The notes: generated by a model from the letters alone, not told the origin. DNA of 64,000 nucleotides from an uncultured Pseudomonadota bacterium (GCA_902784345.1 CACZUD010000003.1:27876-91875), one strand, 5' to 3'. Counted from the stretch's first letter, positions 40,178 through 54,706 are shown. Numbers and translations: made by a program.

Positions 40178-40686
40178 ATGAAACGCGAAGAAAAATCAGA
40201 TTTGATTTCAGCGTTGCAGTCGTCCTTGAAAGAAGCAGACGGTGTTTTCGTTATTGAAAACCATGGTTTGGTGTTTTCGTTATTGAAAACCATGGTTTGA
40301 CAGTGAAAGAAATGGAAACATTGCGCAATGAATTGCGTCCTTTGGTTTCTATGTTCAAAGTTGTCAAAAACCGTTTGATGAAATTGGCGTTGAAAGACAC
40401 CAACTTCGAAGCTGTATCTGATTTGATGAAACGTCCAACAGCAGTTGCAGTTGCAACAGATGCGTTGGCTGTTACCAAAGTATTGGCAAAATTTGCTGAA
40501 GAACACCAAAAATTAACAATTGTTGGTGGTAAAATGGATGCAGAACTTCTGGATGTGAACGGCGTTGTGCAATTATCCAAGCTTCCATCCTTGCTGGAAA
40601 TTCGTGGTACTATCGCACGTATATTGATAGAACCAGCATCACGTCTTGCACGTGTTTCAGCAGAATATGGAAAAAAAGAAAATTAA
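40178..40686 (+). pseudogene. rplJ: 50S ribosomal protein L10 gene interrupted by a 29-bp tandem duplication (frameshift)
   Basis: The ATG at 40178 gives MKREEKSDLISALQSSLKEADGVFVIENHGL, then the frame runs into TGA at 40295-97. The canonical continuation TVKEMETLRNELRP...VVKNRLMKLA is in another frame (ORF 40297..40686). Removing one repeat copy restores a 159-aa L10. Confidence 0.85.
40241..40298 (+). repeat. perfect tandem duplication, 2 x 29 bp (ggtgttttcgttattgaaaaccatggttt)
   Basis: Read directly: 40241-40269 is identical to 40270-40298. Confidence 0.98.
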
Positions 40687-50258: not shown

Positions 50259-51329
50259 ATGTCAGATACAAAAAAAATAATTTCAGTTGATGCGATGGGT
50301 GGGGATCATGCACCCGGTGCTGTTTTGGGCGGAATGAATCAGTTTCTTTATCAGTATGGTGAAGATACAGTGTTTTTTCGTGTGTTTGGTAATGAAAAAA
50401 AATTGCGTCCGATGTTAAAAAGGTTTCCGCGTGTTGCGCGCAACTGTGAAATTATTCATACAGAAGGCGTTATTTCTGGGACAGACAAAGTGCGCGATGT
50501 TATTCGCCATGCCCAAGATACGTCTATGTACATGGCAATCAAAGATGTTCGCGAAGGCAATTCTTCTGCGGTTGTGTCTGCTGGTAATACAGGTGTTTTG
50601 ATGGCTTTGTCCAAATTGGCACTGAAAACAGTTGACGGTATTTCACGTCCTGCGATAACAACAATGTTGCCGTCTGGGAATGGCGACACACGTGTTGTTG
50701 GTCTTGATTTGGGCGCCAATGTCCATTGTGACGAAGAAATATTGTTTGACTTTTCTATTTTGGGCAGCGTTTATGCCGAAATCATCGGTGGAATGAAACG
50801 TCCACGCGTTGGTATTTTGAATATTGGGGCCGAAGAAACCAAGGGCAACGAAACACTGCAACGTTTGAATAAAATTTTAACAGAACATATCGATGAATTG
50901 CCTTATGAATACATCGGATTCGTTGAAGGTAATGATGTTACATCTGGGAATGTCCAAGTTGTCGTCACAGATGGCTTTACAGGCAATGTTATGTTAAAAA
51001 CAGTAGAAGGTACCGCAAAAATGATTTCACGCATTGTAAAGGCAAATTACAAGCGTTCATTGATTGCTATATTGGGTACTTTTTTCTTGGTCCATTTGTT
51101 TAAACGGTTAAAGAATAAAATAGACCCGCGTTCATATGCCGGGGCTGTGTTCTTGGGACTTAATGGGTTTTCAATAAAAACACATGGAAATTCAGATGCA
51201 CTTGCATGGTCGCATGCGTTGGAATATGCGGTGAATTTGTCTAATTCTGACTTTTATGGGCAGATACGCGAAAGAACAGAAAAACTTTCCAATATCAAAG
51301 AAGAAATAAAAAATCTGGATGCAGAATAA
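50259..51329 (+). CDS. plsX: phosphate acyltransferase PlsX
   Basis: Start MSDTKKIISVDAMGGDHAPG. SAGNTGVLMA, GILNIGAEE, VVVTDGFTGNVMLK. Confidence 0.93.
   Translation: MSDTKKIISVDAMGGDHAPGAVLGGMNQFLYQYGEDTVFFRVFGNEKKLRPMLKRFPRVARNCEIIHTEGVISGTDKVRDVIRHAQDTSMYMAIKDVREGNSSAVVSAGNTGVLMALSKLALKTVDGISRPAITTMLPSGNGDTRVVGLDLGANVHCDEEILFDFSILGSVYAEIIGGMKRPRVGILNIGAEETKGNETLQRLNKILTEHIDELPYEYIGFVEGNDVTSGNVQVVVTDGFTGNVMLKTVEGTAKMISRIVKANYKRSLIAILGTFFLVHLFKRLKNKIDPRSYAGAVFLGLNGFSIKTHGNSDALAWSHALEYAVNLSNSDFYGQIRERTEKLSNIKEEIKNLDAE
51246..51329 (+). repeat. plsX 3'-end, copy 1 of a direct repeat (68 nt identical to 51878-51945, then divergent to the stop)
   Basis: tctgacttttatggg...gaagaaataaaaaa is identical in both copies. 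The tails encode ...KNLDAE* (copy 1) and ...KKLETAE* (copy 2). Confidence 0.95.
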
Positions 51330-51877
51330 TTTCCCTCCCACGGAGGGGAGGGCTAGTTCGGAGTCGAGAGCAAATTCCCCGCCTGGGGCGGGGTGGATTG
51401 TGCGTCAGCACAAGACGGGGAGGGTTGATATTAGAATCTATTAATATTATGTTTTATCCATAGCAACACATTTGACATATCTTGTTTTACATCTTTATCT
51501 GATATCCTTACTACATGTATCCCCAAAGATTCCATATATTCATCTCGCTCTTTATCGTATTCGTATTTATCATCGTGCGACCAACCATCAATTTCTATAA
51601 CTAGTTTCTTTTCACGACAATAAAAATCTGCAATATAATTTCCGATTGGTTTTTGTCGCGTAAACCGAACCCCTAATTTGCAATGTTGCAACTCTTGCCA
51701 CAGTAAAACCTCTGACAAATTACCAGCTTTACGATTGGCTCTCGACAGACCTTTAAGTTGTTTATTATATGCATACATATTTCAATTTTATGTGTAATTT
51801 ATAGCGGTTGCAATATAAATATTCAACCCTCCCCGTCACCTTCGGTGCCACCCCGCCCCGGGCGGGGAATACAAGCA
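51330..51877. mobile_element. DUF559-endonuclease cassette bounded by GC-rich imperfect inverted repeats, inserted at the plsX 3' end
   Basis: Left 51374-51432 (attccccgcctggggcggggtgg...gacggggagggttgatat) versus the reverse complement of right 51819-51870 (attccccgcccggggcggggtgg...gacggggagggttgaatat). Strongly GC-rich against an AT-rich background. Flanked by the duplicated plsX tail. Confidence 0.55.
51431..51778 (-). CDS. DUF559 (Vsr-like, PD-(D/E)xK fold) endonuclease domain protein
   Basis: 115 aa. SEVLLWQELQ...LGVRFTRQKPIGNYIADFYCREKKLVIEIDGWSHD...DKERDEYMESLGIHVVRISDKDV is the typical DUF559 pattern. Confidence 0.8.
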   Translation of the reverse strand: MYAYNKQLKGLSRANRKAGNLSEVLLWQELQHCKLGVRFTRQKPIGNYIADFYCREKKLVIEIDGWSHDDKYEYDKERDEYMESLGIHVVRISDKDVKQDMSNVLLWIKHNINRF

Positions 51878-51964
51878 TCTGACTTTTATGGGCAGATACG
51901 CGAAAGAACAGAAAAACTTTCCAATATCAAAGAAGAAATAAAAAAATTAGAAACCGCAGAATAA
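51878..51964 (+). repeat. plsX 3'-end, copy 2 (orphaned, followed by the native-looking terminator)
   Basis: See copy 1. In frame it would encode SDFYGQIRERTEKLSNIKEEIKKLETAE*. Confidence 0.95.
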
Positions 51965-51978
51965 TAAAAAAATTAAAT

Positions 51979-52007
51979 AAAAAAACCGCCGATACGGCGG
52001 TTTTTTG
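51979..52007. terminator. bidirectional rho-independent terminator
   Basis: accgccg-ata-cggcggt with flanking A-run and T-run. Confidence 0.75.
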
Positions 52008-52008
52008 T

Positions 52009-54384
52009 TTATTCAACTGTGCAACCTGTTAACGTTATTCTGCCAGTAGGTACACCACTTACCATTTCTTCTGTTAAGACATCTGTATATCCGTCCGGAC
52101 AAGAGCAACGTGTTACCTGACCACCAGTAGATACTGTCTGGACGCTGTTGTTAAATTTTGGACATACGGTGCACTTTGTTGTCAATCCGTTGTCGTCCAA
52201 ATAAGTACCAGAAGGACAATTGATAGATATACTTGCAACCCAATCGTTCATTGCGCGCAATGTTAACTTGGTTCCGTCTTTTGGTGTATAACCATTGACC
52301 GACATACATGTTGTAATTTCTGCTACGCATGCATTAACAGCGGTACGAGATACCGTAGATGTGGTATTAGAATCGTCATATCCATTTGAAGACAGGCATG
52401 ATTGTACATCACCACGGCATCCTTCGGCATAATCTGCAATCAAAGCATCCTGTTGAACCTTTATCTTTGGCAAAGTGGTGTCCAAATACATGCGAACTGC
52501 TTCGTTGTCAATGACATATTCTGAACCTGTTTTGTTGCTTTTAATTTTGAATGTATAATCTTGACATTGTTTCATAATGGATGCGCACATACCATGAACT
52601 TTGTCATTGTTGTCAATATAACCAATTTTTTGCAACAAGTAAAAGGCTATATTAGGTGTTGATAAATTCTTGTCGTAATCGGCTTTCCAGTCGCCCAATG
52701 CTTCTTGGACATATCCGCCTAAGTTTTCTGTTTGACCCTTGCTCCATGCATTAAGGCCGGAACCATAATTCCATGTTGCATACAAATCATACATACCACC
52801 ACTGGTCCAGCTTGCATAACCGTTAGCGCTGTCTATATCTGATTGATTAACAGTCTGTCCACCAGAAATACCAGGTGTAGATCCTTTTACAACTTCACCG
52901 TTTGCAATGAATTTGCCGGTTGGATCCAAACATAATTCATAGTCAGAACCGCAAACATATTCGTCTTGCATACATGAATCAATTGCCGCAACACAACCAC
53001 GCAAATCATAAGAATTCTTGTTTTGTGTCAACAACAAACGCGCCTGTTGCAAGATGTTTGTTGCATTGAACACATTGTTTTTCATTTCTTTGTTTGCTTC
53101 GGTTAATGCACGTTCATACGCAATACATTGCTTGTCAATTTCCAAATCATAAGAATTTGTAATTACGTTTGCATCAATACCTTGGGCGGTACAAGAATTC
53201 AAAACAGCCGTTTTGCAACGATTCGTCGCTGTTTTATACAATTGTTCGCCACGTTGATTTGAAACACTGGTTGTATTTGTTGTTTTTGTGCTGCCCAAGA
53301 ATGAATTCAAATCGAATCCAGATGTAAAGTCAGCATCCAATAATCCGTTTAAATCCAACGAAAGACCACTGGTCATTTCGTATGTAGAAGAAGCATTTGG
53401 TGTTGAAATATCAACGACTTTACGTTTAATTGCATCCAAACTGGTCTTTAACTGTGAAGAATCAGAATTAGATTTCATCGCCAATTCTGCTTCTGTTTCT
53501 GCAAACAGAGCTTCAATTTGTGGACCACTTAAACCAATATATCTGATTTTTTGAATGGCTTCTTGGAATTGTTCTGTTGCAGCCTCTAAAGCTTTTTCTG
53601 TTTTCTCATAATTCTTTAAGTTCTTAGAGCAAGAACAACGACCCTGATTATCATCCAAAACATTACAATAATTATCCATACATGCTGCATATTGTGCCTG
53701 ACAGTATTCTGTCAATTCTGCAACCGCTGTCAAAGTAGATGTTGTGGAAGAAACGTCTTCTTCTGTGATAACAGGTGTAGTAGATGTCGTAGATGTTGAT
53801 AAACGAATACCTGAACTTGGAGAACGACGTGTTGCGACACTTACGCGTGCAGTATTAGAAGGATTATATAAAGAAGAGTTCGAACCTTCTATTACAGTTG
53901 CCTGATTAGATGGCAATGATCTGCTTGTTGCAGACATAACAGTATTACCAGCCGTCCCAACACGTGCAGTTACTGGCTTGGCGGTCTGTGCGCCGCGTGC
54001 CGTCACGCTGGCACGAGAAGAAACTGTAGAAGAAGGTCTGTTAACAACGCCTGTCGTACGTGCAGCACGTGAAGTTGTTCCGCGAGCCACTGTTGCGCGT
54101 GGAGATGATGCCATTGCACGGGAAGATGTGTTTGTGCGTGCAGAACCAGAATTTGCCGCGGACGATATTGCACGAGATGCAGTTGTAGAACGGTTTATCG
54201 TATTACGTTGGGCAACAGCCTGTGGTTGAACAATTTCTTGTTCTTTTGTGGCAACTTCACCGTCATTAAGCATTTCATCAGTGTATTCGACAATTTCGTC
54301 GTAATAAACCGGTGCAACCTCTGCAAATGCAGGCAAAACCAGTATTCCACTTAATACAGTAATAAATCTTTTCATGTTAGACAT
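52009..54384 (-). CDS. hypothetical exported protein, 791 aa (basic Ser/Thr/Arg/Ala-rich low-complexity region plus Cys-rich body)
   Basis: Signal peptide MKRFITVLSGILVLPAFA. Residues about 57-200 are low complexity, of the type SRAISSAANSGSARTNTSSRAMASSPRATVARGTTSRAARTTG. More than 30 Cys, including YCQAQYAACMDNYC...RCSCS, and a C-terminal CPSGTYLDDNGLTTKCTVCP furin-like repeat. Confidence 0.7.
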   Translation of the reverse strand: MSNMKRFITVLSGILVLPAFAEVAPVYYDEIVEYTDEMLNDGEVATKEQEIVQPQAVAQRNTINRSTTASRAISSAANSGSARTNTSSRAMASSPRATVARGTTSRAARTTGVVNRPSSTVSSRASVTARGAQTAKPVTARVGTAGNTVMSATSRSLPSNQATVIEGSNSSLYNPSNTARVSVATRRSPSSGIRLSTSTTSTTPVITEEDVSSTTSTLTAVAELTEYCQAQYAACMDNYCNVLDDNQGRCSCSKNLKNYEKTEKALEAATEQFQEAIQKIRYIGLSGPQIEALFAETEAELAMKSNSDSSQLKTSLDAIKRKVVDISTPNASSTYEMTSGLSLDLNGLLDADFTSGFDLNSFLGSTKTTNTTSVSNQRGEQLYKTATNRCKTAVLNSCTAQGIDANVITNSYDLEIDKQCIAYERALTEANKEMKNNVFNATNILQQARLLLTQNKNSYDLRGCVAAIDSCMQDEYVCGSDYELCLDPTGKFIANGEVVKGSTPGISGGQTVNQSDIDSANGYASWTSGGMYDLYATWNYGSGLNAWSKGQTENLGGYVQEALGDWKADYDKNLSTPNIAFYLLQKIGYIDNNDKVHGMCASIMKQCQDYTFKIKSNKTGSEYVIDNEAVRMYLDTTLPKIKVQQDALIADYAEGCRGDVQSCLSSNGYDDSNTTSTVSRTAVNACVAEITTCMSVNGYTPKDGTKLTLRAMNDWVASISINCPSGTYLDDNGLTTKCTVCPKFNNSVQTVSTGGQVTRCSCPDGYTDVLTEEMVSGVPTGRITLTGCTVE

Positions 54385-54504
54385 CCTTCCTTTTATACGA
54401 CAATTTTATCATAAATATAAATGCTATACAAGCAGAAAAATATTTTTTTGCATAAGATTTTTATGTTTGATAAAAAATTTTTTTTAAAAAATGCATTTTT
54501 ATAC

Positions 54505-54534
54505 TTGACCTGCGAATCGATTTTGTTTTAAGAT
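54505..54534 (+). promoter_or_regulatory. candidate sigma70 promoter for the 54707 gene (the spacer contains GAATC within gcgaatcgatt)
   Basis: TTGACC, 18-nt spacer, TAAGAT. Confidence 0.35.
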
Positions 54535-54706
54535 GTTTGTATAGACAAGGGAAAAGTTAAATAAAACCCCCGGAAATCTGGAAAAACTGGAAATCTGGGA
54601 AAAAATAAAAAATAACAAAAAGTAAAAATAAAAAATTGTAAATACACTGGTAAATACAAAAATTTTTACTTTTTTACAAAAAAAGCCCTGAAAGGAGGGA
54701 AACCAC

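Follow-up and report, generated by a model that had tools for sequence, protein, structure and literature searches.

In a 64,000-nucleotide stretch of DNA from an uncultured Pseudomonadota bacterium (GCA_902784345.1, CACZUD010000003.1:27876-91875; called the window here, with positions counted from its first letter), the 3' end of the gene plsX is present twice, and the 548 bp between the two copies hold a single gene for a nuclease of the DUF559 family, bracketed by a pair of GC-rich inverted repeats that we call the left and right arms. The original prediction, made from the sequence alone, had described a small mobile or homing-type cassette inserted at the end of plsX; its account of the anatomy (a gene end present twice with diverged tails, a terminator after the distal copy only, imperfect inverted repeats of two blocks with different spacer hairpins, and one enclosed DUF559 gene) agrees with what we find (Table 1). 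The direct repeat comprises the last 85 nt of plsX (51246-51330 versus 51878-51962). Over 68 of these (51246-51313 and 51878-51945) the copies are 100% identical; downstream the tails diverge, with the proximal tail (51314-51329) ending the protein in ...KNLDAE* and the distal tail in ...KKLETAE*. Among dispersed exact direct repeats of at least 25 nt, with copies at most 3 kb apart, the window has no other.

Table 1. Features of the plsX locus and its insert, in window coordinates (ORF, open reading frame)
Feature	Position	Strand	Basis
plsX coding sequence, host gene	50259..51329	+	Pfam PF02504, E = 9e-97; ORF list
Proximal copy, duplicated plsX 3' end	51246..51330	+	direct-repeat search; sequence read
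Truncated extra module and linker	51331..51372	+	read directly; compared by eye with L010 and the linkers of L003, L007 and L165
Left arm, 3' of the DUF559 gene	51373..51428	+	covariance model R1; inverted repeats; DNA fold z = -3.9
DUF559 nuclease gene, 115 aa, intact	51431..51778	-	PF04480, E = 2e-28; homologues at 70-90% identity
AT-rich 5' region of the DUF559 gene	51779..51822	-	promoter weakly predicted
Right arm, 5' of the DUF559 gene, inverted relative to the left arm	51823..51871	-	R1 match; inverted repeats
Filler CAAGCA between right arm end and distal repeat	51872..51877	.	read directly
Distal plsX 3'-end copy (...KKLETAE*)	51878..51964	+	direct repeat; comparison with L082-L089
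Intrinsic terminator, native to plsX	51980..52006	+	12-bp stem followed by T run

The stop codon of plsX (TAA, 51327-51329) abuts the first GC-rich module. The terminator is found 3' of the distal copy only, and an equivalent hairpin lies directly 3' of plsX in relatives; the distal end and the terminator align collinearly with uninterrupted plsX ends in related species (L082-L089; L numbers denote the loci compared). The filler has no homology to the right arm or to the distal repeat, and comparable fillers occur in L010, L002 and L015.

Between the proximal plsX end and the left arm lies a truncated extra module with a linker, a feature absent from the original prediction. It consists of TTTCCCTCC-CAC-GGAGGGGAGGG followed by the linker CTAGTTCGGAGTCGAGAGCAA, which recurs between modules at related loci; as DNA the segment folds with -8.6 kcal/mol (z = -1.9). 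The module was probably left behind by an earlier cassette or arm. Its first part (51331-51352) matches by eye the start of the left arm of L010, another cassette at a plsX end, and this resemblance suggests that an older plsX-site cassette of the CCCCTCC type was partly replaced by the present one, which is of the CCCCGCC type.

The nuclease gene of the window is free-standing. Searches of Rfam with the whole window (gathering threshold) and with 51200-52050 (E <= 10) returned only tRNAs and terminator-like noise, with no family over the arms and no intron. A -35 box (TTGAAT) had been proposed to be formed by the repeat terminus; here a consensus scan gave only weak promoter-like sites with 9 of 12 matches. 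In L003, L005 and L165, a conserved AT-rich palindrome, TTGAACAAAA(C/T)ATATTTTCAA, lies about 40 nt 5' of the DUF559 start, in the interval that separates the upstream arm from the start codon in these free-standing cassettes, and it could be a promoter or an autoregulatory operator. On the plus strand of the window, a 68-aa ORF (51758-51964) crosses the right arm and continues, without a change of frame, into the plsX tail of the distal copy (...PSPSPSVPPRPGRGIQASDFYGQIRE...KKLETAE*); since one frame in three would match and the GC-rich arm has no stop codons, it is probably due to chance.

The protein matches PF04480 with E = 2.1e-28 and 98.8 bits (cut-off 20.6) over profile positions 3-108 of 109. 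Against NF007294, the NCBIfam equivalog of YcjD, it scores 60.8 bits where the cut-off is 218, and we thus regard it as related to YcjD and not as its orthologue. An AlphaFold model (pLDDT 81) matches 3HRL best, the catalytic domain of the homing endonuclease I-Bth0305I second (3R3P; E = 5e-4, TM-score 0.67, rmsd 2.8 A) and Vsr third (1VSR, E = 0.1), so that the protein is predicted to adopt the Vsr-like variant of the PD-(D/E)xK fold. The best match by fold, 3HRL, is also the best by sequence, and it was the only one reached in searches of the PDB with the protein and with a 28-sequence profile, 3R3P not being found in this way. I-Bth0305I reportedly has an extra DNA-binding domain, which is absent from the 115-aa window protein. 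The same fold search also returned several large-subunit proteins of Toxoplasma and Tetrahymena mitoribosomes (E = 2e-4 to 6e-2) and, weakly, endonuclease domains of R2 retrotransposons.

Across 28 homologues, 41 columns are invariant; among them are D51, E62, D64 and H68, with D69 nearly so (motif ...ADFY...EIDGWSHD...). Read from the alignment of these homologues, they are candidates for the catalytic E, D, H and D residues of EDxHD enzymes. The dN/dS ratio, calculated with the L161 series left out, is 0.04-0.2 at dS of about 1, and the DUF559 protein is under strong purifying selection. Taken with the invariant columns and the modelled fold, this argues that the protein is functional. A selfish, site-specific role for DUF559 proteins is in itself not a new idea: Vsr, DUF559, DUF2726 and I-Bth0305I (3r3p) have been placed in one group (PMC3424549), one paper names a DUF559 gene as a member of the EDxHD family (PMC9403480), and the EDxHD homing endonucleases include free-standing genes (PMC3384342).

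A family of DUF559 genes between inverted arms

Homologues of the window nuclease number in the thousands; at 70-90% identity their sources are gut and rumen metagenomes as well as metagenome-assembled genomes (MAGs) that bear the names Alphaproteobacteria or Candidatus Enterousia. In all 17 close loci (L002-L018) the DUF559 gene lies between inverted GC-rich arms of the kind seen in the window, and so it does in most of 63 more distant ones (45-59% identical), which belong to Bacteroidota, Balneolaceae, Cyanobacteria, Francisella, Desulfobacterota, Bacillota and Patescibacteria; of 78 loci that were scored, most had a best flank-to-flank inverted repeat that was GC-rich and lay above all 20 shuffles. 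The covariance model R1 found 239 modules in 638 kb of DUF559-anchored loci as against 3 in 359 kb of plsX-anchored loci, and 131 of 176 strong matches were situated less than 200 nt from a DUF559 gene. Arm orientation is near-invariant, + upstream (62:3) and - downstream (56:10). DUF559 domains can be 75-83% identical between cassettes of different phyla, and several MAGs hold two copies of the cassette. Arms also occur on their own, as inverted doublets without a gene (L163, L003, L042), as tandem arrays (L009, L012, L022, L039, L060), and as a solo arm after the plsX terminator of L095 that is absent from its relatives L094 and L097. The cassette is one member of a large and widespread family that is apparently undescribed: in the open-access papers searched, DUF559, the arms, EDxHD, BoxC and intrastrand triplexes, and YcjD led to no account of the cassette and no link between BoxC and DUF559. 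At one locus (L005:3650-4700) the cassette flanks form an inverted repeat of about 300 nt (score 429) that reaches well past the arms into host sequence; either a true palindromic duplication or an error of assembly may account for it.

At plsX itself, presence of the cassette varies between relatives. Among species with plsX 80-85.5% identical in nucleotide sequence, at least eight (L082-L089) have an empty site, with a single plsX end followed by the terminator; species without the cassette are 80-84% identical in plsX. Two others carry a cassette at this place (L010, plsX 85.5% identical; L008, 83%); by eye these are near-identical to each other, they are 77% identical to that of the window, and they have CCCCTCC-type arms. 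The L010 cassette is inverted relative to the window, while L008 has the same orientation. The nucleases closest to that of the window (88-90% identical amino acids) sit after mnmE (L002, L161, L166), and other cassettes are found after rlmN (L165), serS (L061) and a hemolysin-III-like gene (L015, L017, L018), the last two hosts being putatively assigned from short C-terminal peptides. The empty sites and the recurrence of the same arms at other DUF559 loci thus bear out the view of the cassette as a small selfish element that looks mobile, encodes a nuclease and ends in inverted repeats. The further idea that it targets the end of plsX is supported only in part: L010 and L008 also have a cassette there, of a different lineage, but the closest relatives sit after mnmE, and others at serS, rlmN, the hemolysin-III-like gene and restriction-modification (R-M) genes.

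In about 35 of the 63 distant loci the cassette lies in frame inside a long ORF. In L029 (3920-4364), arm, DUF559 and arm are part of a 1219-aa hsdR ORF (...LRATGF/NSPPLEGW...DUF559...TPPTEGN/LVQESPESYG...), in whose product Pfam recognises HSDR_N, DUF559 and helicase domains. The insertion falls in the linker that joins the HSDR_N nuclease domain to helicase motif I, and its site is the same in several genera (L019, L030, L031, L035, L043, L046, L053, L058 and others, with HsdR of about 1220-1270 aa). Uninterrupted hsdR homologues, with flanks 73-85% identical, lack exactly the 148-residue segment; this empty site is defined at the protein level, as the linker is too variable for nucleotide boundaries. 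Judging from flanking peptides, further in-frame copies lie in an hsdM-like N6 methylase (L062) and in type IIG/ISP-like methylases (L024, L040, L049; ...LGLxFxxEK/NSPP...), and the 1469-aa ORF of L060 holds 42-nt modules in five separate groups, every one of them on the coding strand. From these comparisons, arm, gene and arm together look like one mobile unit.

At the in-frame loci, 81 of 96 matches have a module length divisible by three (mostly 42 or 48 nt) versus 32 of 80 at free-standing ones, an excess which suggests that the modules are under selection for reading frame; the in-frame copies thus appear to be translated. Rickettsia palindromic elements are selfish DNA of a similar kind, lying in frame within protein-coding genes, translated, and carrying no gene. 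The 42- and 48-nt modules in R-M genes resemble them, the difference being that the cassette also brings a whole nuclease domain. An intein can be rejected for L029: the insert is followed by Leu, with no nucleophile at the downstream junction, and Pfam finds DUF559 only and no intein domain. We likewise reject a classical transposon or insertion sequence, as there are terminal inverted repeats but no fixed short target-site duplication, and the sole gene is DUF559, with no recognised transposase or integrase.

Duplicated gene ends accompany many of the cassettes, and each is built from the end of the local host gene itself. They comprise 92 nt of plsX in L010 (5 mismatches, 4 at third codon positions), about 15 nt of plsX in L008, 58 nt of mnmE in L002 and L166, 54 nt of mnmE in L161 (differences synonymous in 5 of 5 cases), 49 nt of serS in L061, 66 nt plus diverged tails of a gene in an Algicola MAG (L066), and 23-49 nt of the hemolysin-III-like gene in L015, L017 and L018; the cassettes of L014, L016 and L165 have none. 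The upstream copy always reaches a stop codon, which usually overlaps or abuts the AATT end of the arm (TAATTCCCC, TAAATTCCCC). In L061 the upstream copy has lost its stop and ends in the arm loop. The downstream copy abuts the opposite arm, at times via 3-10 nt of filler.

Since the duplicated ends are those of the respective host genes, vary in length and are missing at some cassettes, they are neither plsX-specific cargo nor a target-site duplication of fixed length, which the range from none to 92 nt rules out. They look like a by-product of insertion or of cassette turnover. The claim that the cassette repairs its host gene with a diverged copy of its own thus survives in part: gene-end duplications of 15-92 nt do recur, but they are made from the local gene and can be absent. 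A comparison with 11 related plsX tails did not single out either tail of the window as the foreign one. An L010-like donor for the proximal tail was considered; the tails give it no support, and only the arm remnant resembles L010.

Arm structure and likeness to BoxC repeats

The arms of the window pair over two stretches, 51374-51396 with 51848-51870 (23 nt, 96% identical) and 51414-51428 with 51823-51837 (15 of 15), and reach a GC content of 0.55-0.65 against 0.377 for the whole window. The block CCCCGCCYGGGGCGGGG occurs in the window only at the two arm sites (4 strand matches; 0 in 100 shuffles). The 15-mer block is likewise confined to them, but two matches were reached in 5 of 100 shuffles and it is not significant alone. 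In the left arm, a first hairpin (51377-51393; CCCCGCC TGG GGCGGGG) contains a pyrimidine block and is followed by a second hairpin (51398-51413) and by a third, G-rich block, GGGGAGGG (51417-51424). The three blocks are common to both arms, whereas the second hairpin differs, being TTGTGC/GCACAA on the left and CACC/GGTG on the right. R1 recognises the left arm at 51373-51425 (50.2 bits, E = 1e-10) and the right arm at 51826-51871 (58.1 bits, E = 7e-13). Folded as single-stranded DNA, each arm gives two hairpins on either strand; the fold of the left arm is clearly better than that of shuffled sequences (z = -3.9 and -4.9 by strand), that of the right arm marginally so (z = -1.7 and -2.0).

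From its outer to its inner end, the consensus arm of the family is AATTCCCCTCC, 3-4 nt, GGAGGGG, TG, a hairpin variable in sequence and length, and (C)GGGG(T/A)GGTT. Across loci the sequence of the second hairpin is fully replaced while its pairing is kept, with changes on both sides in 6 of 8 pairs, and the central pair of the first hairpin is either T-A or G-C; covariation scores 0.184, compared with 0.062 for shuffled and at most 0.056 for slid controls. The conserved feature of the arms is thus their structure. The third block mirrors the purine half of the first hairpin (GGAGGGG and GGGG(A/T)GG), and this mirror relation is kept in other families as GAAGGGG and GGGGTAG (L061, L027) or as AGGGGG and GGGGGA (L059, L071).

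The intrastrand-triplex motif of the BoxC/PIT/TM_ECO repeats is defined by a pyrimidine block, a purine block and a second purine block that mirrors the first (PMC4666352); the TM_ECO consensus is CCCTCNCCC-N3-6-GGGNGAGGG-N3-GGGNGAGGG (Holder et al. 2015, PMC4666352). The family alignment of the arms has this three-block design (CCCCTCC, GGAGGGG, GGGG(A/T)GG). In the arms of the window (CCCCGCC, GGCGGGG, GGGGAGG) one position is unable to form a standard triad, and these arms depart from the TM_ECO consensus in having 7-nt blocks and a hairpin-forming second loop of 23 nt (left) or 16 nt (right). We thus regard the window arms, as far as their sequence tells, as a different sequence family with the TM_ECO architecture, whose triplex formation is putative.

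The likeness to BoxC/PIT/TM_ECO extends to the common order of pyrimidine block, loop, purine block, second loop and second purine block, to GC-richness, to conserved stems with variable loops, and to occurrence as singles and inverted pairs. Modules beside the DUF559 genes of L059, L071 and L074 even have a BoxC-like second loop of 3-4 nt and the TTA type, whereas in the family of the window this loop is a hairpin of 10-30 nt and the blocks measure 7 and not 9 nt. BoxC has been reported as purely intergenic and unlinked to any gene or mobile element; the cassette modules, in contrast, flank a nuclease gene on both sides and, where they lie within genes, can be translated.

The one DUF559 gene of E. 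coli K-12 that we examined, ycjD (1351407-1351760), has a TM element near it: TM_ECO no. 9 (1351239-1351204; coordinates of PMC4666352) lies 168 nt downstream. By a rough estimate, the chance of such proximity is about 0.004 (18 TM loci, 4.6 Mb). In strain 2017-02-2CC, the ycjD stop codon falls inside a complete inverted TM, CACCCTCACCCC-AA-CCCTCTCCCT-GAAA-GGGCGAGGGGG, with the polarity of the downstream arms of cassettes. K-12 has an extra, diverged copy of the ycjD end plus TM that is absent from 2017-02-2CC (L167:4041-4560, NC_000913.3 about 1351040-1351560; L168, L169); a 39-nt candidate for a target duplication at ycjD proved to be this second copy, and not the target of another gene. The 361-nt ycjD region was matched over at least 80% of its length in 3367 of 5426 complete E. 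coli genomes at the sensitivity of megablast, suggesting a locus that is polymorphic or has divergent alleles.

How the cassette may spread

We consider it probable, with real room for doubt, that 51331-51877 represents one autonomous member of a widespread group of selfish DUF559-nuclease cassettes with BoxC-like arms, that the nuclease acts on the arms, and that insertion yields duplications of variable length. Computation shows the anatomy, the family and its distribution, the presence/absence polymorphism, the conserved arm structure, the purifying selection and the nuclease fold; cutting of the arms, the route of insertion and the origin of the duplication are inferred. The nuclease would act on its own arms, or on similarly folded DNA, and the resulting breaks would allow the cassette to enter A/T-rich sites by copying or joining. 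Preferred positions would lie right at a stop codon and before the terminator, and in other lineages in frame in the linkers of R-M genes. If the two ends of a cassette were joined at separate but nearby A/T-rich positions, or if staggered insertions or cassettes recombined, the interval would become duplicated, and selection would then retain those insertions whose upstream gene copy still terminates correctly. Solo arms, doublets and arrays would be non-autonomous derivatives, much as REP and REPIN sequences are with respect to RAYT. That system is similar in having a single-copy enzyme gene between inverted short structured repeats which also occur as singles, doublets and arrays; RAYTs, however, are HUH/Y1 transposases acting on single-stranded hairpins, whereas the enzyme of the cassette is of the Vsr-like PD-(D/E)xK type and its link to the repeat is putative.

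Several points weigh against this account. A duplication that varies or is absent is unlike a classical target-site duplication, and we know of no enzymology that yields such a pattern. Simple insertion does not explain why 68 of 68 nt are identical and the tails then diverge abruptly; an extra step is needed, for which gene conversion between the copies (ending with the homology) and a recombination junction at 51313/51314 are candidates. The arm type co-varies with the nuclease clade, and plain linked descent would give the same. The window holds a single cassette, with no second DUF559 gene, no more arm copies, no GC-rich islands and no solo modules, and thus gives no signal of proliferation. 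E. coli ycjD has no upstream arm. Cleavage by these 115-aa DUF559 proteins, of the arms or of any DNA, is itself putative. Lastly, Holder et al. found neither a stable triplex in vivo nor an association of TM_ECO with mobile elements (PMC4666352).

Among the alternatives, the first to be weighed is classical homing with a carried surrogate end, which we think unlikely. Here a cassette-free plsX would be cut at the left edge of the repeat, a donor plsX end would be copied in together with the cassette, and the end of the recipient would be displaced downstream. The geometry (inserted C-terminus, endonuclease ORF, native C-terminus) is that of mobile ORFs in mitochondria, where in Allomyces atp6 and in Glomus atp6, atp9, cox2 and nad3 an endonuclease ORF sits at the 3' end of the host gene, the gene end is duplicated and the upstream copy is used (PMC3630166); GC-rich double-hairpin mobile elements in the AT-rich mitochondrial DNA of Allomyces are also on record, as cited in later papers (Paquin et al. 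1994, 2000, cited in PMC3630166 and PMC3787672). Homing would also fit the fold, which matches a bona fide homing endonuclease, the collinearity of the distal copy and terminator with uninterrupted relatives, and the start of the distal repeat, for which the window and L010 have equivalent points of plsX in spite of the different lineage and orientation of their cassettes. Differences between copies are mostly synonymous (5 of 5 in L161, 4 of 5 in L010), as expected of two once-functional alleles; they favour a donor copy, but are too few for significance.

The mitochondrial ORFs differ, however, in encoding LAGLIDADG or GIY-YIG enzymes and in having copies that are 63% identical and of demonstrably foreign origin, whereas the window has one 100%-identical stretch and no identifiable donor, and the duplication is absent at some cassettes. 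The EDxHD homing endonucleases, of which I-Bth0305I is one, share the nuclease fold and are selfish genes with presence/absence polymorphism in conserved host genes; the cassette of the window, in contrast, has no intron or intein, encodes only the 115-aa catalytic core, belongs to a family found at many different host genes, and is bracketed by conserved structured inverted repeats that homing endonuclease genes do not have. In addition, the identity of the copies over 68 nt means that any recognition site within that stretch is intact in the host, and homing leaves unexplained the repeated de novo duplications by which one cassette lineage at different genes has the end of each gene duplicated, or none. 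It points to a foreign donor that the tails do not reveal, and leaves without a role the arms, whose conservation across phyla exceeds that of any other DNA feature. End-joining or recombination is favoured instead by the range of host genes, by the cassettes that lack a duplication and by this unexplained role of the arms.

We regard as improbable, more so than homing, that DUF559 is a host maintenance nuclease which removes or processes folded triplex or hairpin DNA, for instance, comparable to Vsr in repair, that the modules spread independently of it and accumulate beside it, and that the plsX duplication arose from repeat-induced instability, by slippage, unequal exchange or stalled replication. 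Between E. coli strains, rearrangement is significantly more common at TM/BoxC loci than at control sites, and in vitro DNA polymerase is blocked by PIT elements (PMC4666352). Arm-containing duplicated units at E. coli ycjD and in L163, the strong purifying selection on the protein and the solo arm of L095, which inserted alone, would all be compatible with such a role. What speaks against it is that arm, gene and arm are present or absent as a unit in hsdR and at plsX, that arm orientation around the gene is near-invariant, and that the gene passes from one host gene to another, unrelated one and from phylum to phylum; its lack at the plsX locus of most close relatives, judged at the level of that locus, would also be odd for a housekeeping gene.

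There is very little to recommend an invertible switch, in which arm-mediated flipping would alter expression of the nuclease or turn an R-M host gene on and off, so that the element would be regulatory and not mobile. It is true that "DUF559 domain-containing protein" is 14-fold enriched among predicted targets of programmed inversion (PMC9881135) and that plsX-site cassettes occur in both orientations (the window and L008 versus L010), but this difference lies between species and between cassette lineages 77% identical to each other, no invertase gene is found nearby, and presence/absence polymorphism, the variety of host genes, solo arms and the duplication are all left unexplained. That the duplication is an artefact of metagenome assembly can practically be dismissed: the sequence is apparently metagenomic and many homologues lie on very short contigs, which suggests that such regions break assemblies, but the ENA contig L001 is 100% identical over 51103-54675 (3.6 kb), both repeat copies included, though it possibly stems from the same assembly, and analogous duplications occur at different genes in many independent assemblies.

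Returning to a selfish cassette whose nuclease acts on BoxC-like arms, we would tentatively extend the idea, as a possibility that falls short of probable, to DUF559/YcjD-type nucleases in general: these may be the missing partner enzymes of BoxC/PIT/TM repeats, forming a bacteria-wide selfish system similar to RAYT and REPIN but with a Vsr-like nuclease and with ends that form triplexes or double hairpins, one that inserts at stop codons with long duplications of variable length and places a whole nuclease domain in frame in R-M enzymes. DUF559 is a widespread family of unknown function that includes E. coli YcjD, and the cassette ties it physically to BoxC-type repeats. For their part, BoxC/TM repeats are linked to genome and locus instability, with no function assigned and no known origin or mobilising enzyme (Holder et al., PMC4666352). 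Through this tie both puzzles become testable, the question being whether YcjD or other DUF559 proteins cut or move BoxC-like DNA. That a nuclease cassette is tolerated, and apparently translated, inside hsdR, hsdM and type IIG genes bears on the annotation and diversification of R-M enzymes. The cassette would moreover be a bacterial counterpart of the mitochondrial mobile ORF with a duplicated gene end, and short duplicated gene ends beside GC-rich hairpins in MAGs should not be written off as assembly errors.

Neighbouring genes and repeats

Convergent with plsX, a gene on the minus strand (52009-54384) encodes a 791-aa protein with a signal-like N-terminus, a region rich in Ser, Thr, Ala and Arg, and many cysteines. 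It belongs to no significant Pfam family (there is a weak match to TIMP, E = 0.008), and similar Cys-rich genes also lie 3' of plsX on several related contigs. Elsewhere in the window, and unrelated to the cassette, a tandem direct repeat (40241-40299) with a 30-nt exact match at an offset of 29 nt is located in a GC-rich, coding-looking stretch; the segment 40753-40800 is likewise GC-rich.

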